DNA from: a virus
Taxonomy: Duplodnaviria; Heunggongvirae; Uroviricota; Caudoviricetes
Direction: 5' to 3' (one strand)
Length of the DNA: 64,000 nt
Virus record (IMG/VR): IMGVR_UViG_3300025310_000004
Coordinates: 59,759 to 123,758 of that record
Shown here: positions 8,418-38,594 of the stretch, in pieces
Layout of the letters: each line of letters opens with the position of its first letter
How positions within the stretch are numbered: position 1 is the stretch's first letter
Program-made: the position numbers and the translations under genes
The notes under the pieces: model-generated
Seen by the model: only the letters and a program-made list of their open reading frames with translations
The model's database searches: none
What the model was told of the DNA's origin: nothing

Positions 8418-11400
8418 GTGCCACGATCTGGCCCACTGCGTCGAGTCCAACTGATGACCAACCGGCGCTTGGCGGGGTTTGCCATGGCGCGCCCACAGGC
8501 ATCGGCCTACGCCACCACTGCGGCCCTCACCAAGATCGGCGACATCAAGGCCCCCTACGGCACCGTCGAGGCGTGGCAGCGCGACGCTTACGGCTACTAC
8601 GAGGTCATCGGTGAGGTCGGGTACATCATCGGCATGACGGCCAACACGGTGGCCGCGTGCGAGATCAGGCCCATCGAGGTGGACAACGAGGTTGCCCCCG
8701 GTGGATGGCGAGAGACGGGCGATGAGCGCGTCCTGCGGGTGTGGAATGCCCTCGTTGGACCTCGCGGCGGCAAGGCCGAGTTGTATCGCAAGGCGTCCAT
8801 GAACCTGCAGATCGCGGGCGAGTGCTTCTTGCTCGGCTCGCCGATGGAGGACGAGTTCGGTCGTGAGGCTGGCATCTCCTGGGAGTTCATCTCCCCCGAG
8901 GAGTTGAAGGTCGAGAACTACGGCCGCACCATCAAGCGCAACATGGGTGGCTACGGGGGTCAGCAGATCGTTGACCTCGATCCTGACGCCCACTACATCG
9001 CCCGGCTATGGCGTTCTGACCCAAGGTTCTCAGACCGCCCCGACTGTGCACTCAAGCACGTCCTTCCCATCTGCCGTGAGGTCGTTGTTCTCACCCAGGT
9101 GGTCGATGCCATCGCCAAGTCGCGACTGCCTGCCGGAATCCTGTTCGTCCCCGACGAGATGTCGTTCGGCCCCTACGACGAGACTGAGGACGACAGCGAC
9201 AACACCGACGAGATCGATCCGTTCACCCAGGAACTCATCGACCACCTGACCGCTCCCATCGAGGATCGTACCTCGGCTGCGTCGCTGGTCCCGCTGCTCA
9301 TGCGCGGTCCGGCCGAGTTCTTCGACAAGGTGAAGTTGATCGACATTGCCAAGGAACTCGACACGCTCTACATGGAGTTGCGTCAGGAGGCAATTCATCG
9401 TCTCGCTACCGGCCTGGACGTTCCGCCCGAGATCATGGAAGGCAAGGGCGGCCTCAACCACTGGTGCTTCGATGACCAGACCGAGGTGCTCACCACTGAG
9501 GGGTGGAAGTGCCTCGATGAGTTCGAGGTCGGCGACGTGGTGCTGTCGCTCAACCATGAGACTGGCACCACTGAATGGCGTCCGTCTGTGGACATGTACG
9601 TGGCTGACGTGGTGGATGAGCCGATGTTGAGCATCGAGGGTGATCGTCATTCGTCGTTGACCACGATGGATCACCGTTGGCCCACTCTCCACAGGGTGCG
9701 GGAGAATGTGGTTGACCCCGAGACGGGTCGTAAGACCTCTCGCGTTGTCGGCCAAGAGCGCATCTGGACCACCAGCGAGAAGTTGAACTCCAACGACTCA
9801 CTGATTGTTGGTGCCCGTTCATCGGAGCAGCCCGCCGAGCAGAAGTGGTCTGACGAGTTGGTCGAGGTGGCTGCTTGGCTGTGGACCGAGGGCAATATTC
9901 GGTTCCGTCATCAACGCGTGTCTCCGCAAATCGGCATCTGGCAGTCCATCAAGGTGAATCCTGACAACGTGGCCAGGATCAGGGCGGCGTTGACCGGGGT
10001 GTTTGGACCAGCCCTTGAATCTCTTACTGATGGTGAGGTTGGTCGGCCGACCGGCGATCGCCGTGAGGCGGCCTGGGTAGAGCGGATTCAGCCAGGTCGC
10101 CCCGATATGGTTGAGTTCAGGCTCAACGCCTCGGCGGCTGACGCCCTTGTTGGGTTGTTTGACGACCCCGCCCGCAAGGTCCTCAAGTTGGATTTCATCC
10201 GCGATCTCACCGTGGCGCAGTTGGAACTGTTCATCGACACCTCCATTCGAGCGGATGGCACTGTCTTGCCAGCCGGGACCATTCACATCACGCAATCCGA
10301 CCCCGACCGGCTCGCGCCGTTGGAGTTGGCCGCCATCCTTTCGGGCCGTTCCACCCACCTGTATGAAACGAAGCAGAACGGCACCATGCTGTCGATCTCA
10401 CCAAAGACGACTTTCACCCTGAGCCGCAAGCAGTTGCGGGTTGTGGACTACACGGGTCGCATCTGGTGCCCCACGGTTCCACCTTATCACAGTGTTCTGA
10501 TTCGGCGAAATGGAAAGGTTGCATTTACTGGACAAACCGGCTACAACATCGACGCGGACTTCATCTCCAAGCACGTCTCCCCCCTCGGTGACATGCTCTC
10601 GGAGTTCCTCACCTCGGCCTACCTGCGACCCATGCTGGTGGAGTTCGAGGACATGTCCGAAGATGAGGCATCGCAGTATCGCCTCCTGTTCGACCCCAGC
10701 CGCATCACGTCGCGTACCGACACCGGCCCCAATGCTCGTGCCGCCTACGACCGCACCGAGTTGTCTCGCGTCGCCTACCTGCGTGAGTCGGGCTTTGACG
10801 AGGCCGACGCTCCTGACTACGACGAGCGCAAGGAGCGTGACCTTCGCAGCCTGATGGCCGCCGAGCCGATCATCTTCGGCCCGCAGGTGATGGGCATGCT
10901 GTACCCCGAACTTGAGGGTGAACTCACCCTGCCGGAGAGCAGCGGCGGCAACGACGGGGGCGATCCCGGCAACCCGACTGACGTTCCTGAGCGCAAGAAC
11001 GACACGGGGCCATCATCGCGTCCCGTCATCGACAACGAGACGGGTCAGGACGAGCCGATGCCACGGGGTCCATCTGGGCCTCGCATGGAAGAAACCATCA
11101 TCGATCGGCTCGCTACCGGGGCAGACGCGGCCCTTGAGCGTGCCCTTGAGCGCGCTGGCAACAGGGTGCTGTCCAAGATGAATGGTGCCCACGTCTCGAT
11201 GAAGGACCGCTTCAAGTCCACCCCCAAGACCGAGATCATCTCTGGCGTCAGCGATCGCGAGTTGAGTCAACTTGGGTTGACGCTGACCGACCTGTTCGCT
11301 GGTTCGTGGGACAACCTGGCCGTTCGCGGCAAGGGTTGGCTGCGTCAGCACTTCATCGATCAGGGCATCGACAACTTCACCGCCGACGAGAAGGCAGCGA

Positions 11401-11546
11401 TGGTCATGAACTGTCTGCTCGCACTTCTTGAGGTTGAGGCCATGTCTGCGATGCAGCGCCCCCTGAGGGTTGGGCCGAACGGCTTGCGGGTCCCCAACGA
11501 GATGATCGAGCAGGCCCTTGAGCAGCACGAGAGGATTCCGACATGA
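8418..11546 (+). CDS. portal protein interrupted by an intein (Hint + LAGLIDADG-like endonuclease)
   Basis: 1042 aa. Portal-like exteins surround an insert that begins CFDDQTEVLTTEGW and has a WCP motif near its end. Confidence 0.6.
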   Translation: MPRSGPLRRVQLMTNRRLAGFAMARPQASAYATTAALTKIGDIKAPYGTVEAWQRDAYGYYEVIGEVGYIIGMTANTVAACEIRPIEVDNEVAPGGWRETGDERVLRVWNALVGPRGGKAELYRKASMNLQIAGECFLLGSPMEDEFGREAGISWEFISPEELKVENYGRTIKRNMGGYGGQQIVDLDPDAHYIARLWRSDPRFSDRPDCALKHVLPICREVVVLTQVVDAIAKSRLPAGILFVPDEMSFGPYDETEDDSDNTDEIDPFTQELIDHLTAPIEDRTSAASLVPLLMRGPAEFFDKVKLIDIAKELDTLYMELRQEAIHRLATGLDVPPEIMEGKGGLNHWCFDDQTEVLTTEGWKCLDEFEVGDVVLSLNHETGTTEWRPSVDMYVADVVDEPMLSIEGDRHSSLTTMDHRWPTLHRVRENVVDPETGRKTSRVVGQERIWTTSEKLNSNDSLIVGARSSEQPAEQKWSDELVEVAAWLWTEGNIRFRHQRVSPQIGIWQSIKVNPDNVARIRAALTGVFGPALESLTDGEVGRPTGDRREAAWVERIQPGRPDMVEFRLNASAADALVGLFDDPARKVLKLDFIRDLTVAQLELFIDTSIRADGTVLPAGTIHITQSDPDRLAPLELAAILSGRSTHLYETKQNGTMLSISPKTTFTLSRKQLRVVDYTGRIWCPTVPPYHSVLIRRNGKVAFTGQTGYNIDADFISKHVSPLGDMLSEFLTSAYLRPMLVEFEDMSEDEASQYRLLFDPSRITSRTDTGPNARAAYDRTELSRVAYLRESGFDEADAPDYDERKERDLRSLMAAEPIIFGPQVMGMLYPELEGELTLPESSGGNDGGDPGNPTDVPERKNDTGPSSRPVIDNETGQDEPMPRGPSGPRMEETIIDRLATGADAALERALERAGNRVLSKMNGAHVSMKDRFKSTPKTEIISGVSDRELSQLGLTLTDLFAGSWDNLAVRGKGWLRQHFIDQGIDNFTADEKAAMVMNCLLALLEVEAMSAMQRPLRVGPNGLRVPNEMIEQALEQHERIPT

Positions 11547-14500
11547 GCGGCAAGCGTTGGCTGGGGGTTGAGGCTGCTGCTGCTCGGCTCAAGGCTTCCT
11601 ACGCCGCCGATCAGCCCGACCACTCCGCCGGGATCATGGCGTGCGTGCGACCGAACGATCCAGGTCGGTTTGTTGTTGAGGGCGGCACCCCCGAGGAGGA
11701 GGTGCACCTCACCTTGGCCTACTTCGGCAAGGTGACCGACGAGGAGTGGACCGATTCAGCGCGCCAGCAGATCGCCGAGGTCATCTCGGCTGAGATCGCT
11801 GCTGACCGTGAGCCGATCCATGGCGAGATCACAGCCGTCACCACCTTCGAGTTGGCTGGCGAAGATGAACCGCCTCTCGTCTTGTTGGTTGATGCCCCTG
11901 GGCTTGGGGAGATGCGTGCGGCTCTCGTCAAGTCGGTCAACTCGGCCCTGGGTTCCGACCAGGAGATCAAGTCCAATCACGACTTCATGCCCCACATCAC
12001 CTTGTGTTACGGGGCGAATGACAGCGAGGAAGCCTTTGCCGAGGGACTCATCGGCGAGAAGGTGACCTTCGATTCGGTCGAACTTGTGTGGGGTACCGAG
12101 TCCTCCGTATGGCCCTTGGGGTCAAATCGATCCGATGCCATCTCTGACTCTGAGGCCGAGAACGGGCTACGATTTGAGGACACGAATGCCCCGCAGTTCG
12201 CTGAGCCAGGTGCCCAGGAGGGTGAGATGCCTTACGAGATCGTGGAGAAGCACCCTGAGTGCAGCGCGGGCGACCCCTACGCGGTCGTCAAGTCTGACGA
12301 CGGGGAACTGATGGGCTGCCATCCCAGCCGCCAGGATGCGGAGGAGCAGATGGCTGCTCTGTACCAGGCCGAGGAGGGCAAGGAGGAGGACTCCATCGAG
12401 GCTTCGGCCGATCCGCTAGCCATCGTGATCGGCGACGAGCCGACTCGTGATGAGCGCCTAGCGGCGATCGATGAGTTCGTTGCACCGAAGAACGGTGCTG
12501 GTGGCGGGGGCGCGAGCGACGACGAGGACGAGGAGGATGACTCTGAGTCCGAGGATGAGGTGGAGATCGAGGTTGAGGTCAAGGATTCCGAGTCCGACGA
12601 CGAGGAGTCCGACGACGAGGAGGACATGGACGCCGAGGGCTCGGCTGAGTTCCAGGCCGTGGCGATCCACCACACCCCGACTTCCGATGGGCCGTGGGAC
12701 GGTCCGGCCAACGAGGCTCGTGCCAAGTCCGGCGAGAGCGAGGACTACTACCGGAACATCTTCGCGTGGCAGGACCCCGAGGGTGACCCTGAGACGAAGG
12801 CTGCCTGGCGGTTCATCCACCACGAGGTGAGCGAGGACGGCACCCCTGGTGCCGCCAACCTGCGCGCCTGCTCGACCGGCATCGGCGTGCTCAACGGTGG
12901 GCGCGGCGGGACCACGATCCCTGCCGCCGACCGCGAGGGTGTCTATCGCCACCTGGCAGCCCACCTGGCCGATGCCGAGAAGGAGGTCCCCGAGTTGACC
13001 TCCCTAGAGGGTGGCGAGGCCATGGAGGCGGAGAGCACCGCTGAGTTCAAGGCCGTCCCCTCGCACGACACCGCCACCATCGACCCGCCCACCTTCACTG
13101 AGTGGGACGGCGATGAGGCGGCCAAGCGTGCCCGGTCCGGCGAGACGCCTGACTACTACAACAAGATTTACGCGTGGGTTGACTCCAACGGTGACCCCAC
13201 CAACAAGACCTCCTACAAGTTCCCGCACCACGTCGTGTCCGAGTCCGGTGAGCCTGGTGCAGCCGTCGTCTGGGCCGTCCACTCCTCGATCGCCGTGATC
13301 GATGACTCGACCATCCCGACGAGCGACTACCAGGGGGTCTACAACCACCTCGCCAGGCACCTGCGTGATGCTGGTGTCGAGGACATCCCCGAGTTGGGCG
13401 AGGACGTTGCATCCATCGATGAGGTGCGTGCGGCGATCGCCACGATGCGCGCTCGGTTCCACGCCATGGCCGCCAAGGCCGTGCAGGAGGCTTCCGTGTC
13501 CAAGTCCGACATCACCGCATCCGACGACCTAGCCCTAGTGGGCGAGGTGGTTCGTCGTTGGTTCGAGTCCGTCGCCAAGTCCGAGGCCAAGGCCGTCGAG
13601 TCCGACGCAGCCTTCGCTGCCGATGACGAGGCAGCCATCTCCGACTGCCCCTGCCACGATGGCGTCCTAGAGGACGGGGCTACCCACACCGAGGGATGCC
13701 CCTTCGCCAAGTGCGACGACGAGATGGCCGAGGAGGCACCCGAGGGCGAGGAGATGCCCCCGGAGGACGACGAGGTTGTGGTCGGCGACTTCAAGCGCGG
13801 CGACTACGAGTGGGAGGGTGTGCTCATCGTTGAGGGCCTACCCTCCGGCGACGGCCGCATGATCGATGAGGGTGCGCTCACCTGGCGTGAGTTGCCGGTT
13901 CCCCTCATGCTGCAGACCATCAACGCTGGTGGTCACGATGGTGCTGTCATCGCTGGTTCGATCCACGAGATCGAGCGAGTCGGCCACGAGATCGTTGGCC
14001 GCGGCTACTTCGACTCTGGTGAGGCTGGCCAGGAGGCCAAGCGTCTGCTGAGCGAGGGCACCATGCGCGGCGTGAGCGCCGACATCGATTCGGTGGTGGC
14101 CGAACTGCGCGACGAGTCTGGTGCCGACGTTGCCATGGAGGATGTGTTGTTCGGCGATCCCGGCAACGTCATGGAGGTGCTGACCGAGGGTCGCATCATG
14201 GGAGCGACGATGACGCCGTTCCCCGCCTTCCAAGAGGCACACCTCAAGGTCATCGGCAAGGATGATGTCGATGAGGACATGGTGCTGGTGGCTTCCGGCT
14301 CCAAGGCCGACGGTGAGGTCTGGCGCTTCACCAGCCCCTACCCGCTGGTTGGTCGGGGTGGAGAGTCCTACAAGGTCGAGAGCCTCGTGGCATCCGGTGG
14401 CACGGTCACCGAGTTGCCGGTTATCCCGGTCCACCCGCCGCTGGCGTGGTTCGCCGCCGAGGACCCGGAACTCGATCCCAACATGCCCTTCACGGTGTTC

Positions 14501-15232
14501 CCCAACGGACGCATCTACGGCCTCGTTGCTCGGTGGGGCACTTGCCACATCGGCTTCTCGGATCGTTGTGTCCAGGTGCCGCGGCCTCACGACGGCTACG
14601 CCAACTTCCGTTGTGGTCACGTCCTGACCGCAGAGGGCACGTTGGTCAGCACCGGCCCCATCTACGCCGACACCGTGCACCCCAGCCTCAAGATGAGCGC
14701 CAGCGACGCCCAGGCGTTCTACGCTCACACGGGTTGCGCTCTGGGTGATGTCGTGCTCTACGAGGGCGAGTTCGGCATCTTGGCCGCTGGTGCGGTCAAG
14801 TCCGATGCTCCCATCGAGGCAGTCAACCGCCTGCGCGCTGCCGGGGTTTCCCCCGACTGGCGCACCATCGATCGCAACCTTGAGATCGTCGGCCTGCTGT
14901 CGGTCAACGTCTCCGGGTTCCCGGTGTCCACCGCCCTCGTTGCGGCGGCTTCGGAGATCGGTGGCATCGTTCCCACGGTCGGCGGTGAGCCGAAGTGGGA
15001 GGTCGATCGTGGTGAGTTCACGTCGCTGGTGGCCGCTGGCTCGCTGATGCCGTGCACCAACTGCGGATCGCACTCCATCGACAACGGGACGGCTCTGGCC
15101 CTCCTTGAGATGCTGAACGATCACGCCATCAAGATCGCCGAGTTGAGCGAGGTTGTGCGCCCCTACCGCATGGAGCGGCTGGTGTCTCGCTTGACCGAAC
15201 TCGGCATCGGGAGTGATCGCTCCGACAGTTAG
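11543..15232 (+). CDS. polyprotein-like fusion: 2H phosphoesterase domain, 2x ~130-aa repeats, U35 prohead protease, C-terminal domain
   Basis: HLTLAY and HITLCY H-x-T/S-x motifs at the N-terminus. Repeats FQAVAIHHTPTSDGPWDG / FKAVPSHDTATIDPPTFTEWDG. Protease block EGVLIVEGLPSGDGRMID...PLMLQ..H. Confidence 0.6.
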   Translation: MSGKRWLGVEAAAARLKASYAADQPDHSAGIMACVRPNDPGRFVVEGGTPEEEVHLTLAYFGKVTDEEWTDSARQQIAEVISAEIAADREPIHGEITAVTTFELAGEDEPPLVLLVDAPGLGEMRAALVKSVNSALGSDQEIKSNHDFMPHITLCYGANDSEEAFAEGLIGEKVTFDSVELVWGTESSVWPLGSNRSDAISDSEAENGLRFEDTNAPQFAEPGAQEGEMPYEIVEKHPECSAGDPYAVVKSDDGELMGCHPSRQDAEEQMAALYQAEEGKEEDSIEASADPLAIVIGDEPTRDERLAAIDEFVAPKNGAGGGGASDDEDEEDDSESEDEVEIEVEVKDSESDDEESDDEEDMDAEGSAEFQAVAIHHTPTSDGPWDGPANEARAKSGESEDYYRNIFAWQDPEGDPETKAAWRFIHHEVSEDGTPGAANLRACSTGIGVLNGGRGGTTIPAADREGVYRHLAAHLADAEKEVPELTSLEGGEAMEAESTAEFKAVPSHDTATIDPPTFTEWDGDEAAKRARSGETPDYYNKIYAWVDSNGDPTNKTSYKFPHHVVSESGEPGAAVVWAVHSSIAVIDDSTIPTSDYQGVYNHLARHLRDAGVEDIPELGEDVASIDEVRAAIATMRARFHAMAAKAVQEASVSKSDITASDDLALVGEVVRRWFESVAKSEAKAVESDAAFAADDEAAISDCPCHDGVLEDGATHTEGCPFAKCDDEMAEEAPEGEEMPPEDDEVVVGDFKRGDYEWEGVLIVEGLPSGDGRMIDEGALTWRELPVPLMLQTINAGGHDGAVIAGSIHEIERVGHEIVGRGYFDSGEAGQEAKRLLSEGTMRGVSADIDSVVAELRDESGADVAMEDVLFGDPGNVMEVLTEGRIMGATMTPFPAFQEAHLKVIGKDDVDEDMVLVASGSKADGEVWRFTSPYPLVGRGGESYKVESLVASGGTVTELPVIPVHPPLAWFAAEDPELDPNMPFTVFPNGRIYGLVARWGTCHIGFSDRCVQVPRPHDGYANFRCGHVLTAEGTLVSTGPIYADTVHPSLKMSASDAQAFYAHTGCALGDVVLYEGEFGILAAGAVKSDAPIEAVNRLRAAGVSPDWRTIDRNLEIVGLLSVNVSGFPVSTALVAAASEIGGIVPTVGGEPKWEVDRGEFTSLVAAGSLMPCTNCGSHSIDNGTALALLEMLNDHAIKIAELSEVVRPYRMERLVSRLTELGIGSDRSDS

Positions 15233-15291: not shown

Positions 15292-15624
15292 TTGGGGCTC
15301 GCCGACGAGATCAGTGCATCCCAGGAGAGTCTTTACCGGCGCAGCCGTTCAGCGGTTTGCTCGGTGAAGTTCATCCTCGACTATCTCTCTCCTGAGGACA
15401 GGAAGGCGCTCCAAGCCCTTCTTGACGACAAGCGCGTGTTCGGCACCTCCATTGCCGAGTTGCTCAACGGATGGGCACCCAAGGTGGAGATCGCTGCAGA
15501 AGATGAGAAGGACTCGGCGCGCTCTGCCGAACTCATTCATCTCGCTCAGTTGTGTGGCTCCATCTCCGATGGAACCGTTCAGCGCCATCGGCGCGGAAAG
15601 TGTCTCTGTGCTGAGGACGCCTGA
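15292..15624 (+). CDS. hypothetical protein
   Basis: 110-aa ORF with an AGGGGG SD. Confidence 0.45.
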   Translation: MGLADEISASQESLYRRSRSAVCSVKFILDYLSPEDRKALQALLDDKRVFGTSIAELLNGWAPKVEIAAEDEKDSARSAELIHLAQLCGSISDGTVQRHRRGKCLCAEDA

Positions 15625-16868
15625 TGGCCGACAAGCGTCTGACCGAGGACGTTCCTCAGTTGAGCATCATCAGCGACGCCAACCGGGTCGTCGCTGAGAC
15701 AGAGCGGCGAACCGTCAAGCACCCCAAGGGGTGGGAGCCTGGCGTCGCGTTCGATGGCCAAAGCGGCGTGATCTCGACCGGCCCGCGCACTGCCCCCAGC
15801 GCCCCCAGCGACAACGACTGGCTCGATCTGCTCGCCATCTGGAACCTCGACCCTGAGGTCTACGAGGTTGACCCCGACTACAACCCGGAGTTCCGAGCGT
15901 GGGACGCCAACATCGGTGGTGGAGAGGTTCAGCGGTTCTACTACTACAAGGCTCGTATCCGCCTGCGCCACCAGCGCTATGGCATCGATATGGACGAGGT
16001 GCTCGATGGCATCCGTCGGTGGAAGCGCCTCAGGGCAGTGCCCACCGGACCTCACTCGCTAGTCGTTCCTGTGTCGGACTGGCAGATCGGCAAGGGTGAT
16101 GGCGACGGCGTGCGCGGCACTGTCGATCGGATCATGACCTCCTTCGATCGGCTCGAAGATGTCATCGATGACCTCAAGCGCTCCAAGATCGGCCTTGAGT
16201 GCCTCTACTTGATCGGCATGGGCGACCTGATCGAGCAGTGCACCGGCAACTACCCGGCCCAGGCGTTCACCACCGAGTTGAATCGGCGCGAGCAGTTGCG
16301 ACTCACCTTCCGCTGCATGCGCGATGGAGCAGCACGTCTCTCGCGCAAGATGGATCGCATGGTGGTCGGTGGGGTCGCTGGCAACCACGGCGAGAACCGC
16401 ATCGACGGCAAGTTGTATACGACGCCCGGAGACAACGACGACCTGTTGGTGATCGAGATGGTCGCCAACGCTCTCTTGGAGAACGACGAAGCGTTCGGCC
16501 ACGTTTCGTTCGCCATCCCCGAGGAGAAGTTGTGGCTCGTGCTGGACATCTCCGGCGTTCCCGTCGGCTTCACTCATGGCCACCAAGCAGGACGTGGGGC
16601 TACTCCGCAGCAGAAGCAGAAGGAGTGGCTCAAGGACATGGCCTTCGGTGACCACGACATCGGCCAGGCCCGCATCGTGGTGACGGGCCACTACCACCAC
16701 TTGTCGGTGATCGATCACGGTCCCAAGGTGCACATCCAGTGCCCAGCGATGGATGGTGGGTCGCAGTGGTGGATCAACCGCACCGGATCGGACTCCTCCC
16801 CCGGCACCGCTTGTTTCGTCGTATCATCGGAGTACCGAATGGGGTTCGATCATCTCCGAGTGGTGTGA
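15624..16868 (+). CDS. calcineurin-like metallophosphoesterase (Mre11/SbcD-type motifs) with N-terminal extension
   Basis: GMGDLIE, AGNHGE, GHYHH and GH motifs. Confidence 0.6.
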   Translation: MADKRLTEDVPQLSIISDANRVVAETERRTVKHPKGWEPGVAFDGQSGVISTGPRTAPSAPSDNDWLDLLAIWNLDPEVYEVDPDYNPEFRAWDANIGGGEVQRFYYYKARIRLRHQRYGIDMDEVLDGIRRWKRLRAVPTGPHSLVVPVSDWQIGKGDGDGVRGTVDRIMTSFDRLEDVIDDLKRSKIGLECLYLIGMGDLIEQCTGNYPAQAFTTELNRREQLRLTFRCMRDGAARLSRKMDRMVVGGVAGNHGENRIDGKLYTTPGDNDDLLVIEMVANALLENDEAFGHVSFAIPEEKLWLVLDISGVPVGFTHGHQAGRGATPQQKQKEWLKDMAFGDHDIGQARIVVTGHYHHLSVIDHGPKVHIQCPAMDGGSQWWINRTGSDSSPGTACFVVSSEYRMGFDHLRVV

Positions 16869-17092: not shown

Positions 17093-17218
17093 TGGTGCCT
17101 TGCCTTGTCTGTGGGCAGGAGTATGATCCCATCCGGCATCGCTGGCTGAGCCCGTGTTGCCATGCGAAGGACACATGCTGCGAGGGGGAAGCCTGCCCCC
17201 TCCCCGAAGGGAGCACCT

Positions 17219-17815
17219 ATGCCGGAAGTCTTGATCGGAGTGGCGGGGTACGCGGGAGCAGGCAAGGACACCCTGGCTGACCTGCTGGTCGCTCACTTCG
17301 GGTTCACCAAGATGGCCTTTGCTGACCCGATGCGCGACATGGCGGCTGCCATCGATCCCATCGTGGGCTACCTCGATACCGAGGACCCCAACGAGGACGA
17401 GATCATCCGCTACACCGACGCCATCGAGTGGCATGGCTACACCGACGCCAAGGTGCTCTACCCCGAGATCAGGCGCTTCCTGCAGCGCCTCGGCACCGAG
17501 GCTGGCCGCGAGGGGCCGCTGGGTCAGGACATCTGGGTGAACGTCGGCATGGAGCGTGCCGAGGCTTACGACCGAGTGGTGTTCGCCGACACACGGTTCC
17601 GCAACGAGGCCGAGGCGATCAAGGCTCGCGGTGGGCGCACCATCCGCATCGAGCGCCCCGGCGTGGTCGCCCCCAACGACCACACCTCCGAGCATGACCT
17701 GGCGAAGTGGGACTTCGATCTGCACGTCAACAACAAGGGCACCATCGCCGACATGCTCCCGCGCCTCGAAGGCTTCTTCGCCCGCCACTTCCCCAGGGTC
17801 ATGCGAATCTCCTAG
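17219..17815 (+). CDS. P-loop kinase, dNMP kinase-like
   Basis: Walker A GVAGYAGAGKDT near the N-terminus. Resembles T4 gp1-type deoxynucleoside monophosphate kinases. Confidence 0.6.
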   Translation: MPEVLIGVAGYAGAGKDTLADLLVAHFGFTKMAFADPMRDMAAAIDPIVGYLDTEDPNEDEIIRYTDAIEWHGYTDAKVLYPEIRRFLQRLGTEAGREGPLGQDIWVNVGMERAEAYDRVVFADTRFRNEAEAIKARGGRTIRIERPGVVAPNDHTSEHDLAKWDFDLHVNNKGTIADMLPRLEGFFARHFPRVMRIS

Positions 17816-17931: not shown

Positions 17932-18017
17932 GAGGGTGCGCCGGAGTTGGAGAGCCGGGTTTGGCTGTAAACCAGATGGCACTGCCTGAGGGGGTTCGAT
18001 TCCCTCCACCCTCACCA
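17932..18017 (+). tRNA. tRNA-Tyr(GTA), class II, CCA encoded
   Basis: Acceptor GAGGGTG/CACCCTC. Anticodon loop CTGTAAA. T-arm GGGGG-TTCGATT-CCCTC. Confidence 0.7.
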
Positions 18018-18077
18018 CTTAGGTCCGTGGCGGAAACACTGCTCCTAGGGCAGAGAAACCGCAGCGGACCTAAGCAT

Positions 18078-18164
18078 GGAAGGTCAACCAGACAGGCGTG
18101 CTGGGACTCCCTGCTAAGGAGTTCGCCCCTTCCGGGGGGTGGGGTTCGAGTCTTCGGCCTTCCG
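18078..18164 (+). tRNA. tRNA-Ser(GCT)
   Basis: Acceptor GGAAGGT/GCCTTCC. Anticodon loop CTGCTAA. Long variable arm. No CCA. Confidence 0.6.
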
Positions 18165-18247
18165 CCGGAACGAACGTACCGATCTAGTTTTCGAGTCAGG
18201 TCAGTGAGCCTGCTCCGTACTGGAATCGGTACGGTCGTGCCGGACAT

Positions 18248-18337
18248 GGAGAGTCAACCGGGCAGGCGTACCGGCGCTCGTTGGAAGCGAGTTGGCACCT
18301 TCACGGGTGTGGGGTTCGAGTCCTCGGCTCTCCGCCA
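18248..18337 (+). tRNA. tRNA-Ser(GGA), CCA encoded
   Basis: Acceptor GGAGAGT/GCTCTCC. Anticodon loop TTGGAAG. Confidence 0.6.
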
Positions 18338-18338
18338 A

Positions 18339-18426
18339 GGAGAGTGAACCGGACAGGCGTGCCGGGACCGTCTCGAAAGCGGATCGCCCCTCCGGGGGTG
18401 GGGTTCAAGTCCTCCGCTCTCCGCCA
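18339..18426 (+). tRNA. tRNA-Ser(CGA), CCA encoded
   Basis: Anticodon loop CTCGAAA. Same acceptor as Ser(GGA). Confidence 0.55.
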
Positions 18427-18427
18427 C

Positions 18428-18515
18428 GGAAGGTCAACCCGACAGGCGTGCGGGCACCGCCTTGAAAGCGGATGGGGGCATCAGCCCTGGGGTTCGAGTC
18501 CTCGGCCTTCCGCCA
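18428..18515 (+). tRNA. tRNA-Ser(TGA), CCA encoded
   Basis: Anticodon loop CTTGAAA. Acceptor GGAAGGT/GCCTTCC. Confidence 0.55.
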
Positions 18516-19008
18516 TCTCTCGCTTGGTGAGCCGAGCGACGTAGGAGTGGTCCATGCTCAACTCCTCAGCGATCGCCCGGTAGGTCCATCCCTGGGAGCG
18601 CAACTCCACCATGCGGCGCAAGTCGTCGGGCGTCGTCCGGCGATACCCGGAGAAGTTGTCTCCCGCCGCCTTGCGGGCTCGGTACTCCCGCATGTAGGTG
18701 GCCTTCGCCGATGTCGATGGCACCCTGGGGTTGGTGGGCCTCGGCTTGCGGGTCGCGACCTTCTTGACGGGAGGGCTTGCGGCCTGCTCTGTCTTGGTGG
18801 CCTTCTTCCTCCTGGCGCACACCGAACAAGCGCAGTCGTTGCGACCTCGACACCGATGATGTGAGCCGGAGAGGCAGTTGGTGCAGGTGATCACGCCGCC
18901 ACCATAGCAATCCACTGAGACATGTCGCACCCATGATGTATGGTGTGGACCCCGACGAAAGGAGGCCCCCATGATCGACCTGCACGCTCTATTCGCACCC
19001 GACGACAT
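18481..19008 (-). CDS. Zn-finger + C-terminal HTH (sigma-70 region-4/LuxR-like) regulator
   Basis: N-terminal Cys clusters, basic linker and WTYRAIAEELSMDHSYVARL. The 3' end overlaps tRNA-Ser on the opposite strand. Confidence 0.55.
   Translation of the reverse strand: MSSGANRACRSIMGASFRRGPHHTSWVRHVSVDCYGGGVITCTNCLSGSHHRCRGRNDCACSVCARRKKATKTEQAASPPVKKVATRKPRPTNPRVPSTSAKATYMREYRARKAAGDNFSGYRRTTPDDLRRMVELRSQGWTYRAIAEELSMDHSYVARLTKREMAEGRGLEPQG
18923..18944 (+). promoter_or_regulatory. conserved promoter motif TGTCGCACCC-N6-TATGGT (copy 3)
   Basis: This copy has a ~20-nt leader with GAAAGGAGG SD before the ATG at 18971. Confidence 0.45.
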
Positions 19009-19849
19009 CCAGGCCGCTCTGGACGCTGGGCACCTGCTCTCGCAGACCCACCCCGAGTTCGACCTGACGATCTACAACTACTCGTCGCTGTGCCAGATCA
19101 GCCGCGCCTGGACCCCGGTCACCTCGTCGTGCCGGGGCATGATCGTCGGTCCCGACGGCAAGGTGCTGGCTCGGCCGTTCCCGAAGCGCTACAATCATCA
19201 GATGGCGCGATTCTCAAGCACCCCCGAAGCCGCAGCGATCGATCACGAGTTCTTTGGGACCGGGAAGCCCGAGGCTGATTGGCTAGCCGGGCTTGTGGCG
19301 GCGGATGGCTGCATCAAGAACGAGAAGTTCTGGACCATCACACAGTCGGGGGATCACGGACTTGAGTTGATTGAAGCGGTCAGGGGCATGATCAACCATG
19401 GCCTGTCTGTTGGTCACTACAAGCCCAAGCGGGGACGAGTGGCTCATTCGATCTACGTTCCGTCGGCCCAGATGGTGGCAGACCTGGCGACCAACTACAG
19501 CATCACGCCCCGTAAGAGCCTCACGTTGACTCCCCCCACATTGGACGAAAGTCGGTTCTCTAACTTCCTGAGGGGCTACATCGACGGAGACGGCACCGTG
19601 GGGAGATACTCGGTGGGGCGCTGTCCGAACTACCTGATCGTATGCTTGGTCGGAACCGAGGACTTCATCGAATCGGTACACCACCTCAACGAGTCCGGGC
19701 GCGTGAGGGAACTCAAGAGGGCCAAGAATACTTGGGAGATCAGGTTCAACGGGAATCACGCCGTTGACTTCTGTCGTCGGACATATGCGGCTGGGAGCGA
19801 CCTTCCTGTCACGACCAAGGCGAAGAAGGCTTTGGGAGCAATCGGATGA
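18971..19849 (+). CDS. LAGLIDADG homing endonuclease fused to a duplicated RNA-ligase N-terminal segment
   Basis: The first ~100 aa parallel the N-terminus of ORF 19846 (HPEFDL.IYNY...CRG.IV). Then LAGLVAADGCI and LRGYIDGDGTV dodecapeptide motifs. Confidence 0.6.
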   Translation: MIDLHALFAPDDIQAALDAGHLLSQTHPEFDLTIYNYSSLCQISRAWTPVTSSCRGMIVGPDGKVLARPFPKRYNHQMARFSSTPEAAAIDHEFFGTGKPEADWLAGLVAADGCIKNEKFWTITQSGDHGLELIEAVRGMINHGLSVGHYKPKRGRVAHSIYVPSAQMVADLATNYSITPRKSLTLTPPTLDESRFSNFLRGYIDGDGTVGRYSVGRCPNYLIVCLVGTEDFIESVHHLNESGRVRELKRAKNTWEIRFNGNHAVDFCRRTYAAGSDLPVTTKAKKALGAIG

Positions 19850-20940
19850 ATCACATTGGCGAGTTCTTGGATTTGGCCTCCCTGGATGCCCACATCGAAG
19901 CGGGCAACATCTCTCGATCCCCACATCACGAATTCGACCTCTACGTCCTGAACTACACGAACCAGGCGCAGTTCTCTCGCTCGTGGGACAACGAGACGCT
20001 TAATTGCCGGGGCCTGATTGTTGACTCGGGCGGTCTGGTCGTTGCTCGAAGTTGGGCCAAGTTCTTCAACCACACCGAGACGGCCGTCCCCAAGTACGCC
20101 CTGACCACGCCGCCCATCGTCACCGAGAAGATGGATGGCTCGCTGGGGATCATCTACCAGCGTCCCGATGGGCGCTTCGCCGTCGCCACGCGTGGCTCGT
20201 TCGCGTCTGACCAGGCCGTCTGGGCAACGCAGTGGCTCACCGTCGAGATGCCGGGGTTCATCCAGCCTGCTGGTGTGACCACCCTGGTGGAGATCATCTA
20301 CCCCGAGAACCGGATCGTTGTGGACTACGGCGACCGTGCGGAGTTGGTGCTGCTGGGTGCCATCAACATCGCCACCGGAGCCGACATCCCCCTGTGGGAG
20401 ATCGACTGGTGGCCTGGTGCTCGCGCCGAGATGCACACCGGCATCGGCCACATGGACGACGTGTACCGCTTCGCGACGGGCAACGAGAAGGAGAACGATG
20501 AGGGCATCGTGGCGGTCTGGTACCGCCCCGGCGAGCCGTCGTTCCGGCTCAAGGTGAAGCACCCCGAGTACGTCCGGCTCCACCGGATCATCACGGGCAT
20601 CAATACCAAGCGCGTCTGGGAGGTGCTGGCTTCTGGCGGCGACTTCTACGACGTACTGGATCGTGTCCCCGACGAGTTCTACGGCTGGGTCAAGGGGGTC
20701 ATCACTGACCTCCGCAACCAGTACCAGGACATCGAGGATGCGGTCTATGAGCAGTTCCAGATCATCTGCCTCAACACCGACGACGGCGACCGCAAGGGCT
20801 TCGCCGCCAAGGCCAAGGCCACGCCGTGGCCGGGGTTGATGTTCGCCCTGCTCGATGGCAAGGACATCGAGCGTGCCATCTGGGACATGATCAAGCCCAA
20901 GGCCGAGAAGCCCTTCGCTGACCAGGGTGAGGACACCTGA
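19846..20940 (+). CDS. RNA ligase (Rnl-type nucleotidyltransferase)
   Basis: KMDGSLG motif I lysine. Sits beside a Pnkp gene. Confidence 0.7.
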   Translation: MNHIGEFLDLASLDAHIEAGNISRSPHHEFDLYVLNYTNQAQFSRSWDNETLNCRGLIVDSGGLVVARSWAKFFNHTETAVPKYALTTPPIVTEKMDGSLGIIYQRPDGRFAVATRGSFASDQAVWATQWLTVEMPGFIQPAGVTTLVEIIYPENRIVVDYGDRAELVLLGAINIATGADIPLWEIDWWPGARAEMHTGIGHMDDVYRFATGNEKENDEGIVAVWYRPGEPSFRLKVKHPEYVRLHRIITGINTKRVWEVLASGGDFYDVLDRVPDEFYGWVKGVITDLRNQYQDIEDAVYEQFQIICLNTDDGDRKGFAAKAKATPWPGLMFALLDGKDIERAIWDMIKPKAEKPFADQGEDT

Positions 20941-21006
20941 TCCTCCCCTGGTCAGTGTCGCAGTGGTGTGCTACTATCACGCCACGCCAAGAGAGAGGAG
21001 ACACCC

Positions 21007-21864
21007 ATGGCACGACTCATCATCACCCGAGGTCTACCGGCATCGGGCAAGTCCACCTGGGCGATCGAGCAGATCGCCAAGAACCCCGGTCGCACCATCC
21101 GTGTCAACCGGGATGACATCCGCGCCTCGATCCATGGCGGCGGCAAGTGGTCCAAGACCAAGGAGAAGGCGACCGTTGCAGTTCGCGACGCCATGATCCG
21201 TGCTGGTCTGGCGCAGGGCCTCACGGTCATCTGCGACGACACGAACCTGCCCCAGAAGGTCGTGGACGACCTGACCTTCCTGGCGCACGAGGCCAAGGCC
21301 GATGTGCTGGTGCAGGACTTCACCCACGTCTCGCCCGAGGAGTGCATCAAGCGTGACCTCGCCCGTGAGCGCACGGTGGGGGCCGAGGTCATCATGCGGT
21401 GGTACAACGACTTTCTCAAGCCGGACATGACCGTCACCGTGGATGAGTCCAAGCCCAAGTGCGTCATCGTGGACGTGGACGGCACCCTCGCCCTCCACGT
21501 CGCTCGCGGCCCCTTCGAGTACGACAAGTGCTCGACGGACGCTCCCAATCCCCGTGTGGTCGAGTTGATCAAGATGCTCCGCTCGACCTACGAGGTGGTG
21601 GTGTGCTCTGGCCGTGAGGGCACCGATCAGTGCCGCGCTGACACCATCGAGTGGCTGCAGCGTCACGGCATCACCTTCTCGGGGTTCTTCATGCGCCCCG
21701 AGGGTGACATGCGGAAGGACGCCATCATCAAGCGCGAGATTCTGGAACGGGACATCCTCCCGCGCTGGAACCCTGTGCTGGTGGTGGACGACCGCGATCA
21801 GGTCGTCCGCATGTGGCGCGATGCCGGGCTGACCTGCTGGCAGGTCGCCGACGGCAACTTCTGA
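21007..21864 (+). CDS. pnkp: polynucleotide kinase-phosphatase (T4 Pnkp-like)
   Basis: N-terminal P-loop GLPASGKST and C-terminal HAD motif VIVDVDGTLA. Confidence 0.8.
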   Translation: MARLIITRGLPASGKSTWAIEQIAKNPGRTIRVNRDDIRASIHGGGKWSKTKEKATVAVRDAMIRAGLAQGLTVICDDTNLPQKVVDDLTFLAHEAKADVLVQDFTHVSPEECIKRDLARERTVGAEVIMRWYNDFLKPDMTVTVDESKPKCVIVDVDGTLALHVARGPFEYDKCSTDAPNPRVVELIKMLRSTYEVVVCSGREGTDQCRADTIEWLQRHGITFSGFFMRPEGDMRKDAIIKREILERDILPRWNPVLVVDDRDQVVRMWRDAGLTCWQVADGNF

Positions 21865-21870
21865 GAGCCG

Positions 21871-21912
21871 CCCCCTGTTGTAGTCCTGTCGATCAGGTGC
21901 TACAACAGGGGG
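21871..21912 (+). promoter_or_regulatory. perfect 13-bp hairpin ending 2 nt before the WhiB-like ATG
   Basis: CCCCCTGTTGTAG-(16 nt)-CTACAACAGGGGG. The 3' arm contains the AGGGGG SD. Confidence 0.4.
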
Positions 21913-21914
21913 CC

Positions 21915-22145
21915 ATGCTCGAACCTCCCGCATGGCACGCCTTCGCCAACTGCCGGGGTTGTGACCCCGACCTGTTCTTCCCCCAACGAGGTGAATCGAC
22001 CAGGGAGGCCAAGGCGGTGTGTGCTGGGTGCGTGGTGCGCGAGGACTGCCTTGCCGACAGCGTTAGTGAGAAGTTCGGCATCTGGGGTGGCCTGAGCGAG
22101 CGTGAGCGACGCCGCATCCGCAGGCGGATCGCCCTCGCTGGATAA
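21915..22145 (+). CDS. WhiB-like (Wbl) protein
   Basis: CRGC, CAGCVVREDC and FGIWGG. Confidence 0.7.
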   Translation: MLEPPAWHAFANCRGCDPDLFFPQRGESTREAKAVCAGCVVREDCLADSVSEKFGIWGGLSERERRRIRRRIALAG

Positions 22146-22157
22146 CCCCTTGCGCTG

Positions 22158-22180
22158 GTGTCGCACCCGTGTGCTAGGGT
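22158..22180 (+). promoter_or_regulatory. conserved promoter motif GTGTCGCACCCGTGTGCTAGGGT (copy 4)
   Basis: TGcTAGGGT extended -10, with the ATG at 22188 seven nt downstream (leaderless 28-codon ORF). Confidence 0.5.
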
Positions 22181-22307
22181 CGTAGACATGTTCAGGTCCA
22201 GCGACTTCCGCGAACGAGATCAGCGCCGCTCCCGGCGTTGGCGTCGCGATGCGCGACCTGAGGAGCGCAACTAACCCGTACCCCTCATATCCGGGTGCGG
22301 GAATCAT

Positions 22308-22378
22308 CCCCCCGGAGACATAGGGTGCGTCACCTGCCTCTCAAGCAGGAGAATCGGGTTCGAGTCCCGGCGGGGGGA
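22308..22378 (+). tRNA. tRNA-Glu(CTC)
   Basis: Acceptor CCCCCCG/CGGGGGG. Anticodon loop CTCTCAA. Confidence 0.6.
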
Positions 22379-22381
22379 CTA

Positions 22382-22464
22382 GGGAGTGTGGTGGTCGCGT
22401 GAGCACCATCCCGAGTCAGGAACAACACCAGTGGATCGGTGCCTGACGAGTTGGAGCACTCCCT
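22382..22464 (+). ncRNA. atypical tRNA-like element (acceptor and D-stem pair, no canonical T-loop or anticodon loop)
   Basis: GGGAGTG...CACTCCC 7-bp acceptor, with internal helices GTCAGG/CCTGAC and CACC/GGTG. Confidence 0.3.
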
Positions 22465-22473
22465 CACAACCTA

Positions 22474-22549
22474 GGTCCGTTGGTGTAGTGGTCTTGCACG
22501 TTGGCTTGTCACGCCAAAGGAATTGGGGGTTCGATTCCCCTACGGACCG
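22474..22549 (+). tRNA. tRNA-Asp(GTC)
   Basis: Acceptor GGTCCGT/ACGGACC. Anticodon loop TTGTCAC. Confidence 0.7.
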
Positions 22550-22599
22550 CGTAACTCCCTGGTGAGCCTCTCACCGAAGCGCCCAGGGAGAGAGAACAA

Positions 22600-22671
22600 G
22601 CCCCAGGAGACGTATGGCGAGTCGCCGGACTTTCAATCCGGTTGTAGCGGGTTCGATTCCCGTCTGGGGTA
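22600..22671 (+). tRNA. tRNA-Glu(TTC)
   Basis: Anticodon stem CCGGA/TCCGG. Anticodon loop CTTTCAA. Confidence 0.6.
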
Positions 22672-22684
22672 CGCAACAACACAT

Positions 22685-22754
22685 AGGCCAGCCACAGGGT
22701 GGACGGGAGTCTCCAAAACTCCTAGGCAGGGTTCGAGTCCCTGTTGGCCTGCCA
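22685..22754 (+). tRNA. tRNA-Trp(CCA) with shortened D-arm, CCA encoded
   Basis: Anticodon stem GGAGT/ACTCC. Anticodon loop CTCCAAA. Only 14 nt between acceptor and anticodon stem. Confidence 0.5.
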
Positions 22755-22755
22755 A

Positions 22756-22832
22756 GCGCCCGTGGTCTAATGGATTAGGACACTTGACTACGAATCAAGA
22801 GGCTGCAGGTTCGAGTCCTGCCGGGCGCGCCA
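22756..22832 (+). tRNA. tRNA-Arg(ACG), CCA encoded
   Basis: Acceptor GCGCCCG/CGGGCGC. Anticodon loop CTACGAA. Confidence 0.75.
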
Positions 22833-36632: not shown

Positions 36633-38594
36633 GTGGAGCCGATTCAGATTCCTGAGGACCTCGCGGGTCTATCGGATGAGGAACTGACTTCCCTAGGCGT
36701 TGAGATCAGGGAGCGTGTCGAGGGTCTGGCCGAGGAGGCCCGCACTTCCGACGAGGCTCTGTCTCAGGTCGAGGGACTCATTTCCGACTTCGATCGGATC
36801 AACGAGGAACTCAACAACCGTGAGGAGGCCGCAGCGAACCGCTCGGCTCGCCTCGATGCCGCTCTTGAGCGGTTTGGTCCTGCCGAGGGCGAGGACACCG
36901 ACGAGGCCACCGAGGAGGCCGTCGCCGAGGAGGCCGAGCAGGACTCGGCTGACGAGGAGGCTGCAGCCGAGGAGGACACCGAGGTGAGCGAGGACGCTGA
37001 GGCCGATGCTGATGCTGTCGCCGCTTCCACCGAGGACGAGGCCACCGCCGAGTTCACCGCTGAGGACAGCACCGACACCCCGGATGAGGCACCCGCCGAG
37101 TCCACCACCGAGTTCACCGCCGAGGTGGAGGCCCCTGAGGCCGCTGCTGAGGAGTTCAACGCCGAGGACAACCAGTCCGAGGACTTCACCACCGAGGACG
37201 AGCAGTCCGACGAGTTCACCAACGAGGAGGTCACCGAAGTGGCTGCTTCTGACGACCGGACCCCCAAGGTGTCTCGCCTGCGCGAGCGTCGCCCGGAGGC
37301 TGTCGCCCCCCGCTCCCAGGTGGAGCGGGCCGGTGCCACCCTTGCGGCCCGCTTCGCTGGCGGCAACACCGTCGAGGGTCAGCCCATCGACATCCCCACG
37401 CTGGCCCAGGCCATCGTGGACAAGCGCCTAGCCATGGGCAACGTGCCCAGCGGCATCTTCGACAAGATCACCGTGGCCTCCGCCACGATGGAGTTCGGCG
37501 ATGACGTGGTTGGCGGCGGTGCCCAGGAGAACTTCTCCACCCTGCGCCGGGTCGCCGAGCGCAACACCCAGGTCCGCGAGGAGATCACCGCTCTGGTGGC
37601 CTCCGGCGGCGTCTGCGCCCCGTTGGAGCCGTCCTACGACTTCTTCCGGCTGGCAGAGGCCATGGACCCGGTTGAGCGGTGCCTCGGCACCGTCGGCGCT
37701 CCCCGTGGAGGCATCCGCTACATCCAGCCGCCGGACTGGCGTGACGCCTGCGCTGGCGTCCGGGTCACCACCGAGGCTGAGGACGCCGCTGGCTACGTCA
37801 GCCAGGGTGGCCCCACCCCTGACAAGCCCTGCGTGGCCGTCGAGTGTCCTCCGATCTTGGAGTGCCGCGTCGATGCCGTCTCGCAGTGCGTGACCTTCGG
37901 CAACCTGAACTACCGGGTGTTCCCCGAGCAGGTTGAGGCGTTCCTGGCCGATCTGTCGGTGTGCTTCTCCGAGACGAAGGAGATTTTCTACCTCGACGCG
38001 ATCGACGCCGCCTCGACCCCGGTGACCGCTGGTCCCTCCCCCTACGGCGCTTCCCGCGCTGCGGCCTACGACCTGTCGGTGGCCGCCGCCAACTACCGCC
38101 GTCGTCACCACATGTCGCCGGATGCGACCTTGACGGTGCTCCTGCCCTCCTGGGCGATCGAGTTCCTCAAGATCGACATGCTCAACGACCACTCGTTGGG
38201 CCTGGCGAACTGGTGCCTGTCCGACGCCGACGTTGCTTGCTGGTTCGCCCAGAACAACCTCGACGTGTGCTTCTACTACGACTCGGCCACTGGTGCTGGC
38301 CAGGCGTTCAACGACATCCAGGCTCCTGGTGCCATCAACCAGTGGCCTGACACCATGGTGTCGTACATGTTCGCCCCCGGCACCTTCGTCCGGCTCGACG
38401 CAGGCACGCTCGATGTCGGCCTCATCCGCGACAGCGCCCTCAACGGCACCAACGACCTGCAACTGTTCGCTGAGCAGTGGATTCAGGTCTGCAAGGTCGG
38501 CATCGAGTCGCTCCGCATCGAGCACACCCTGTGCCCGACGGGTGCGGCAACCGAGCCGGTCCCGCCGCTGGTCTGCGCTGCAGGCGTCTCCTGA
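36633..38594 (+). CDS. major capsid protein (HK97-like C-terminal region) with long N-terminal coiled-coil/acidic scaffold-like domain
   Basis: N-terminal ~250 aa are coiled-coil plus Glu/Asp-rich repeats. The C-terminal ~400 aa look capsid-like. Confidence 0.5.
   Translation: MEPIQIPEDLAGLSDEELTSLGVEIRERVEGLAEEARTSDEALSQVEGLISDFDRINEELNNREEAAANRSARLDAALERFGPAEGEDTDEATEEAVAEEAEQDSADEEAAAEEDTEVSEDAEADADAVAASTEDEATAEFTAEDSTDTPDEAPAESTTEFTAEVEAPEAAAEEFNAEDNQSEDFTTEDEQSDEFTNEEVTEVAASDDRTPKVSRLRERRPEAVAPRSQVERAGATLAARFAGGNTVEGQPIDIPTLAQAIVDKRLAMGNVPSGIFDKITVASATMEFGDDVVGGGAQENFSTLRRVAERNTQVREEITALVASGGVCAPLEPSYDFFRLAEAMDPVERCLGTVGAPRGGIRYIQPPDWRDACAGVRVTTEAEDAAGYVSQGGPTPDKPCVAVECPPILECRVDAVSQCVTFGNLNYRVFPEQVEAFLADLSVCFSETKEIFYLDAIDAASTPVTAGPSPYGASRAAAYDLSVAAANYRRRHHMSPDATLTVLLPSWAIEFLKIDMLNDHSLGLANWCLSDADVACWFAQNNLDVCFYYDSATGAGQAFNDIQAPGAINQWPDTMVSYMFAPGTFVRLDAGTLDVGLIRDSALNGTNDLQLFAEQWIQVCKVGIESLRIEHTLCPTGAATEPVPPLVCAAGVS

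Follow-up and report, generated by a model that had tools for sequence, protein, structure and literature searches.

The window analysed here, a stretch of 64,000 nucleotides from a Caudoviricetes virus (IMG/VR record IMGVR_UViG_3300025310_000004, positions 59,759 to 123,758), harbours a long open reading frame (ORF) whose product of 1229 amino acids (aa) combines head-assembly domains with domains of other kinds. The favoured explanation, to which we assign as a whole a probability of roughly 55%, is that this fusion ORF encodes the capsid-maturation protease of a large (~171 kb) uncultured phage, extended at its N-terminus by passenger domains, and that its 2H phosphoesterase domain would be delivered with the virion and act early in the next infection. 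The head genes of the phage are related to those of actinobacteriophages. Judging from its sequence, the C-terminal third of the protein would be the assembly machine, made of a protease domain (D1), a second conserved domain (D2) and a terminal helix, whereas the N-terminal two thirds appear to be the passengers: a 2H domain with intact catalytic motifs, a small Cys/His domain and two diverged modules with five histidines each. The parts of the fusion ORF are as follows.

11543..15232, + strand: whole fusion ORF, a single ORF for a head-assembly fusion protein of 1229 aa
11600..12127, + strand: 2H phosphoesterase domain, aa 20-195 (Pfam, PHROG, motif conservation and hhalign)
11705-11713, + strand: 2H motif 1, H55-L-T57, invariant in 22 homologues
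11993-12001, + strand: 2H motif 2, H151-I-T153, with HxT in 20 of the 22 homologues and HxC in the other two
12218..12442, + strand: small conserved Cys/His domain, aa 226-300 (PYEIVEKHPEC...GCH...ALY), seen by PHROG match and BLAST recurrence
12506..12640, + strand: acidic low-complexity linker rich in D, E and S, aa 322-366, seen in the sequence, gap-rich and poorly conserved among homologues
12644..13018, + strand: first copy of the repeat module (R1), aa 368-492, with conserved H376, H426, H427, H470 and H474 and the loop LNGGRGGTTIP
13037..13411, + strand: second copy of the repeat module (R2), aa 499-623, with H508, H562, H563, H602 and H606, where VIDDSTIP replaces the glycine-rich loop
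13412..13798, + strand: linker, aa 624-752, which includes another acidic stretch, a Cys/His cluster and the conserved short sequence DDLALVGEVVRRWFE
13802..14281, + strand: D1, a divergent HK97-type (MEROPS S78, formerly U35) prohead serine protease domain, aa 754-913
13934-13936, + strand: H798 of D1, invariant in 22 homologues
14075-14077, + strand: S845 of D1, invariant in 22 homologues
14423..14938, + strand: D2, second conserved domain of the actinophage 'capsid maturation protease' proteins, aa 961-1132 (PHROG, invariant columns and structure model)
15083..15199, + strand: long C-terminal helix, aa ~1181-1219 (~40 residues), preceded by a CxxC motif (helix 437-475 in the model of aa 745-1229)

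An earlier, sequence-only reading of the ORF had described an N-terminal 2H (LigT-like) domain with paired motifs, an acidic linker, a tandem repeat and a U35 prohead protease with 500 more residues behind it. Most of this layout holds: the linker is real (~aa 322-366), the repeat and the 2H domain are supported as detailed below, and the protease is backed by its fold and its catalytic residues, though the Pfam Peptidase_S78 model misses it. The tail was overestimated, as only ~310 residues follow D1, comprising D2, a disordered stretch and the C-terminal helix.

The same reading had named two genes fused through a sequencing error as a finding that would refute it. The wider possibility that an error of sequencing or assembly had merged two or more genes is prompted only by the unusual length and the mixed domains, and no support for it was found. 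An identical protein (P0001) occurs on a contig of ~171 kb, and the identical product is recorded in the JGI, ENA and Logan assemblies. Moreover, at least six independent metagenomic homologues (P0002, P0003, P0005, P0006, P0011 and P0012; 42-85% identity), on separate contigs, cover 97-99% of the query in a single polypeptide, so that the full-length architecture is not a frameshift artefact, and the cultured phage Kithara has the 2H, D1 and D2 domains in one annotated gene. Given the coverage of the homologues and the lack of long exact DNA repeats, the sequencing-error explanation was rejected as very improbable. At the nucleotide level, a megablast search with the fusion ORF gave no match among 50,697 cultured phage genomes.

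The D1 domain has the assemblin/gp21-like protease fold, and was compared with the proteases of HK97 (gp4, MEROPS S78), T4 (gp21) and herpesviruses (assemblin). Profile comparisons by hhalign with bona fide S78 domains gave P values of 2e-4 to 5e-3, with His aligned on His and Ser on Ser, whereas in the comparison with HK97 gp4 (P 3e-4 over 121 columns) S845 fell on S114 and H798 one residue off H65, beside a gap. The spacing between H798 and S845 is 47 residues, versus 49 between H65 and S114 in HK97 gp4, and these two invariant residues are the predicted catalytic residues of the protease. The counterpart of aa ~755-1228 typically bears the annotation 'capsid maturation protease' in 871 actinophage genomes. 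PDB searches with the protease region returned chance-level matches, and an NCBIfam scan of D1 nothing meaningful. Unlike HK97 gp4, the fusion protein is five times longer, carries D2 after its protease domain and is not seen by the Pfam S78 model.

D2 matches two PHROG families (phrog_18402 and phrog_21470, E 5e-23 to 4e-40), is folded in the AlphaFold2 (AF2) model of aa 745-1229, and keeps the invariant residues H1002, H1046, S1103, D1105, W1106 and R1107, the last four within the motif SPDWR. No similarity to S78 domains, HK97 gp4 or T4 gp21 was detected with hhalign, a profile comparison of D1 with D2 reached only E 0.05, and Pfam and NCBIfam scans of D2 gave nothing meaningful. In the Gordonia phage Lilbeanie, gp16 (locus L001, 5938-7590) is made of D2 and a 2H domain without D1 or any S78 domain, and no other protease-like domain is present in its 13.5-kb head region; either D2 itself is the protease of that phage or its protease is unrecognised. 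Behind D2, the long C-terminal helix may be a capsid-targeting tail comparable to the C-terminal part of HK97 gp4, which reportedly draws that protease into the procapsid. A PDB search with the C-terminal region found weak coiled-coil-type matches only, and PHROGs none for the C-terminal tail.

A short motif, LVA(S/A)G, occurs repeatedly around D2 and once in the major head protein, which is encoded by an ORF of 653 aa (36633-38594) located 21 kb downstream of the fusion ORF, beyond a tRNA island.

14285..14299, + strand: LVASG, motif 1, aa 915-919, candidate cleavage site, in 17 of 22 homologues
14384..14398, + strand: LVASG, motif 2, aa 948-952, candidate cleavage site, in 18 of 22 homologues
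14936..14950, + strand: LVAAA, motif 3, aa 1132-1136, candidate cleavage site, in 14 of 22 homologues
15026..15040, + strand: LVAAG, motif 4, aa 1162-1166, candidate cleavage site, in 21 of 22 homologues
37593..37607, + strand: LVASG in the major head protein, aa 321-325, between its coiled-coil/acidic N-terminal half and its HK97-fold half

The pattern LVA[SA][GAS] is found four times in the fusion protein versus 0.04 expected, a count reached in none of 5000 shuffles. All four copies flank D2 and lie in linkers that are disordered in the AF2 model and otherwise variable among homologues; the linker holding motifs 1 and 2 (aa 907-955), for example, has a predicted local distance difference test score (pLDDT) below 50. 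In the major head protein, EITALVASGGVCAP stands at aa 321, just where a maturation cut would be expected, between the HK97-fold half and the preceding ~320 aa, which consist of a coiled coil and extremely acidic repeats of the type [AED][ED]F[TN]xE (five copies). This location suggests that the N-terminal half is a built-in scaffold removed at maturation. A similar stretch, ALVAAGGWCAP, is present at aa 301-323 in the major capsid proteins (MCPs) of Kithara, Lilbeanie and the related contig L025, and Lilbeanie gp16 has a copy of the motif between D2 and its 2H domain. From this distribution, the LVA(S/A)G motif likely marks the cleavage sites of the maturation protease, and would thus predict its cuts in both the protease protein and the major head protein of this lineage.

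At the other end of the protein, the 2H domain is recognised by the Pfam family PF13563 (2_5_RNA_ligase2; aa 49-183, 32.9 bits versus a gathering score of 27, E 8e-8) and by PHROG families annotated as 'RNA ligase' (best phrog_2659, E 5.5e-21). The family profile aligns by hhalign with E. coli ThpR (probability 95.5%, E 1.4e-8) and with T4 Acb1 (probability 88.9%, E 2.4e-6), in both cases with the two motifs in register, which together with their conservation makes the assignment to the 2H superfamily solid as a sequence-based call. However, the domain is not a ThpR equivalog, since the corresponding NCBIfam model (TIGR02258) scores 22.2 bits against a cutoff of 65.7. Single-sequence and profile searches of the PDB with the 2H domain produced chance-level matches only.

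Between the 2H domain and the first acidic linker, the small Cys/His domain matches phrog_3684 (E 1e-4) and, weakly, phrog_80 ('head maturation protease'). BLAST segments covering it (query positions 184-300) recur in many homologues, and other head-protease proteins carry the same domain N-terminally; scans with Pfam and NCBIfam gave nothing meaningful for it. Two further cysteine clusters were noticed in the linkers. One, CPCH...CPFAKC, occupies aa ~701-724 (window 13640-13715) before D1, where PHROGs had no match for the linker (aa 651-756); the other, CTNC (aa 1171-1174, window 15053-15064), is the CxxC just before the C-terminal helix and is kept in close relatives only. Both may be small zinc sites.

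The tandem repeat is confirmed by an identity of 49% between its two copies over 127 aa (E 7e-38), while their DNA shows at most 74% identity over 62 nucleotides and no long exact repeats, which indicates an old duplication and not an assembly artefact. A copy of the R2 type, with the five histidines but without the LNGGRGG loop, is also present in relatives, so both copies appear to be maintained. In an alignment of 78 module copies, H426, H427, a glycine, an alanine, H470 and H474 are invariant, and H376, T378, T380, W385 and D386 nearly so; the five histidines (H-x-T-x-T...HH...H-x3-H) suggest a metal or catalytic site. The AF2 model of the module is a compact and confident fold (pLDDT 92.6). 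None of the Pfam, NCBIfam or PHROG families matches the module (both copies were scanned in PHROGs), and single-sequence and profile searches of the PDB gave only chance-level matches.

The module is widespread. A HMMER scan of 1.84 billion cluster representatives detected 2,883 module clusters at E<=0.001, and 606 at E<=1e-30. In a sample of 100 module-bearing proteins, about 90 also contained a prohead protease of one family or another (Peptidase_S78 in 69, S49 in 13, ClpP in 7 and Mu gpI in one), and two had a 2H domain. Other arrangements place the module N-terminally on a capsid protein, between a protease and an HK97-fold capsid protein, or beside methyltransferases together with an XkdF-type protease. 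Unusual passengers accompany the module in two further head proteins: P0082, which has Peptidase_S78, a ferritin-like domain (PF00210) and Hva1_TUDOR among its precomputed Pfam domains, and P0098, where the module is joined to a D12 adenine methyltransferase, a second S-adenosylmethionine (SAM) methyltransferase and a protease of the XkdF type. A profile built from 8 closer sequences was used to scan genome contigs, and copies were found in Zixibacteria, Deltaproteobacteria, Bacillota, Chloroflexota, Acidimicrobiales, Dormibacterota, Acidobacteriota and others, usually in proteins of 300-345 aa formed by the module and an S78 domain. Among at least eight bacterial phyla the module stays 54-70% identical, while the proteases and MCPs joined to it come from families unrelated to each other. 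In cultured phages, only two of the 50,697 genomes gave even a weak match.

The module also exists as free-standing genes of 118-120 aa in bacterial chromosomal neighbourhoods devoid of phage genes. The following ones, of 118-119 aa, lie on contigs of 0.8-2 Mb.

L003, 8001-8360: free-standing module homologue
L006, 7001-7357: free-standing module homologue
L007 and L008, 7001-7360: free-standing module homologues

One of these settings is flanked by a nitroreductase gene and thyX, with genes of haem biosynthesis nearby, and another lies beside Lsr2 and conjugative TraG/VirD4 genes. A further free-standing copy is found in the non-structural region of the Moorella phage MTATph1. Because the histidines are conserved and the conservation does not depend on the fusion partner, the module would rather be an autonomous ligand- or metal-binding, or catalytic, unit than a scaffold. 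As a scaffold or delta domain it is unlikely, given the conservation across phyla and the free-standing cellular copies. That it represents an undescribed protein domain family accompanying prohead proteases is proposed only tentatively.

Several of the genes surrounding the fusion ORF bear on its interpretation.

8418..11546, + strand: portal gene, 1042 aa, matching phrog_776 (E 2e-92) in two stretches
15624-16868: Metallophos/exonuclease-like gene, downstream of the fusion gene
17162-17815: deoxynucleoside monophosphate (dNMP) kinase of the T4 gp1 type, before the tRNAs
17932-31159: 37 tRNA genes in several clusters, for most amino acids, splitting the head module by ~21 kb
18971-19849: LAGLIDADG endonuclease-like ORF
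19846-20940: Rnl1-type RNA ligase
20968-21864: T4-type Pnkp, beside Rnl1
24567-25256: RlaP nucleotidyltransferase
27369-27995: RF-1-domain protein
28018-28827: Metallophos protein
33605-35404: Ro60/TROVE protein

The ATG of the fusion ORF, preceded by a GAGAGGA ribosome-binding site, overlaps the stop codon of the portal ORF (TGA) as ATGA, an arrangement from which both ORFs are predicted to be translationally coupled. The portal match is split in two, apparently because a Hint/intein-like insert (CFDDQTEVLTTEGW..., ~aa 355-700; weak Pfam PT-HINT match) interrupts the gene. The related contig L024 keeps the synteny of an intein-bearing portal (1194 aa, with a faint Intein_splicing match), fusion gene and dNMP kinase. 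The order of portal and fusion gene is conserved on L024 and in Kithara, whereas other genes intervene in Lilbeanie and L025; the kinase follows the fusion gene on L025 as well.

The sequence-only reading had considered a 2H domain in a head-assembly protein unexpected, but there are precedents in the literature and among cultured phages. Fusions of 2H domains to MuF and portal domains were reported by Iyer et al. 2017 (PMC5512222), who predicted their packaging and injection and proposed that the 2H domains act as RNases delivered by the virion or as enzymes breaking down 2'-5' or cyclic nucleotide signals. The fusion ORF resembles those proteins in its intact HxT/S motifs, in a head-internal morphogenetic carrier and in its location among late genes beside the portal, and differs from them in that the carrier is a maturation protease, two unnamed modules are added and an island with RNA ligase and Pnkp lies nearby. 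Pfam found no MuF domain (PF04233) in the fusion protein, which thus appears to fit the theme of virion effectors, with an effector-type enzyme domain among virion genes, but not to be a MuF-domain protein. Among its homologues, eight combine MuF, 2H and protease domains (P0022-P0024, P0027, P0060-P0062 and P0080), and P0118 joins Mu gpI to 2H. Such varied domain orders and head-internal partners are the main argument for a selection to place 2H domains inside the head. More recently, Doherty et al. 2025 (bioRxiv 10.1101/2025.08.21.671373) found that 13 of 75 viral 2H phosphodiesterases have extra domains, proteases included.

In the case of cultured actinophages, gp23 of the Curtobacterium phage Kithara (867 aa, annotated as 'RNA ligase') shows the same order of 2H, D1 and D2 directly after the portal gene, whereas gp16 of Lilbeanie (550 aa; 'RNA ligase' in GenBank and 'head maturation protease' in RefSeq) has D2 before 2H. 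As in the fusion protein of the window, LVA(S/A)(G/A) motifs are present in the linkers of both proteins and in the MCPs of both phages, but the two proteins lack the repeat module, their protease regions are ~33% identical to that of the fusion ORF, and their genomes measure 59-63 kb versus ~171 kb. The fusion itself therefore adds little, being one more effector-type enzyme attached to a head-internal protein, a theme that comparative genomics had brought up before and that annotations of cultured actinophages already show; the part not yet described is the repeated module.

The most likely pathway for the fusion protein would start with its translation together with the portal. Its C-terminal part would draw it into the assembling procapsid, as in HK97 gp4, and the passengers would enter too. 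Once activated, the protease would cut at the LVA(S/A)G motifs, both around D2 and between the scaffold-like and the shell-forming halves of the major head protein. The folded passengers, too large for the capsid pores, would be retained in the head and reach the next host along with the DNA, where the 2H domain would hydrolyse 2',3'-cyclic or 2'-5' phosphodiester substrates, most likely nucleotide immune signals or cleaved RNA ends. The first type of substrate is that of T4 Acb1 (gene 57B), a degrader of the cyclic nucleotides of the cyclic oligonucleotide-based antiphage signalling system (CBASS), which belongs to the same superfamily with aligned catalytic motifs but is a free-standing protein of 152 aa, whereas the 2H domain of the fusion protein is embedded in 1229 aa. 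A similar logic is followed by Alt and the internal proteins of T4, which enter the prohead as cargo, are freed by gp21 and are ejected with the DNA, as set out in part in the introduction of PMC5512222; in T4, however, the cargoes are separate proteins with a short N-terminal capsid-targeting sequence, whereas here the cargo would be covalently part of the protease protein. The identities of the domains are far more certain than the cell biology that we infer from them, namely the encapsidation, the cleavage sites, the ejection and the substrate of the 2H domain.

Some results weigh against this explanation. The profile match between D1 and HK97 gp4 is modest (P 3e-4, probability ~40%), and PF04586 (Peptidase_S78) gave no match to the whole protein at E<=0.1 nor to the protease region of any of the 22 homologues at E<=1. 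The LVA(S/A)G motif is absent from aa 1-914, hence from the spaces between the N-terminal domains, so that the 2H domain, the modules and D1 might stay joined in a fragment of ~100 kDa, and the term 'polyprotein' may overstate the processing. Moreover, the 2H profile scores slightly nearer to ThpR, an RNA 2',3'-cyclic phosphodiesterase, than to Acb1, and an RNA-repair island begins 4.6 kb downstream of the fusion ORF, in and after the tRNA array. On L024, a kinase and an RNA ligase likewise lie ~9 kb downstream of the fusion gene.

These last observations keep alive an RNA-repair role of the 2H domain, in which it would act in the cytoplasm of the infected cell, opening 2',3'-cyclic phosphate ends for Rnl1, and its fusion to the protease would merely ensure co-expression, the domain being released or acting before assembly. 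The repair island is complete, with Rnl1, Pnkp, RlaP, Ro60/TROVE and the 37 tRNA genes spread from 4.6 to 24 kb downstream, and in jumbo phages Iyer et al. 2021 (PMC7824862) proposed that 2H proteins clear cyclic ends for ATP-grasp ligases. However, the T4-type Pnkp beside Rnl1 already supplies end-healing, so the 2H domain is not needed for tRNA repair, and a late structural-gene position would be poorly timed for such repair during infection. Neither an RNA ligase nor a tRNA-repair gene is found within 10 kb on either side of the fusion gene of L025, and according to Iyer et al. 2017 (PMC5512222) the 2H versions in MuF and polyvalent proteins are never found associated with an RNA ligase. 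Co-expression alone also fails to explain the repeated fusion of 2H domains to head-internal proteins (MuF, the portal-adjacent protease and Mu gpI), and this role is regarded as rather unlikely. Judged about equally doubtful is a role in head assembly itself for the passengers or, at the least, for the two histidine-rich modules: they could regulate or delay the activation of the protease, bind the capsid interior or act as scaffold, and would be degraded and expelled at maturation with nothing delivered. The frequent fusion of the module to prohead proteases would agree with this, as would its other positions between protease and MCP or at the N-terminus of the MCP, which are those of scaffold or delta domains, and the likeness of the acidic low-complexity linkers to the acidic N-terminal half of the MCP. 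Nevertheless, a module so conserved next to unrelated partners is unlikely to owe its conservation to a shared protein-protein interface, its free-standing copies occur in non-phage chromosomal and non-structural phage settings, and the conserved catalytic motifs of the 2H domain argue for an enzymatic rather than a structural use. Delivery of the 2H domain with the virion, followed by early action in the next infection, is therefore favoured.

A last aspect concerns the repeat module, which offers a new lead as a widespread and strongly conserved domain, unnamed in the domain libraries and without a solved structural relative. If it is indeed a family accompanying prohead proteases, many uncultured phages and prophages would put the same small enzyme or ligand-binding unit inside their procapsids, either as a delivered factor or as a general switch for protease activation, and this phage would have duplicated the module and split its function between the copies, as suggested by the loss of the glycine-rich loop in R2. 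Its ligand or reaction would inform either the control of capsid maturation or what phages carry in their heads. A minor observation comes from T4 (locus L022), where the 2H gene 57B (Acb1) lies beside gene 1 (dNMP kinase), ipI and a tRNA cluster; the resemblance to the neighbourhood of 2H, dNMP kinase and tRNA genes in the window is probably a coincidence.

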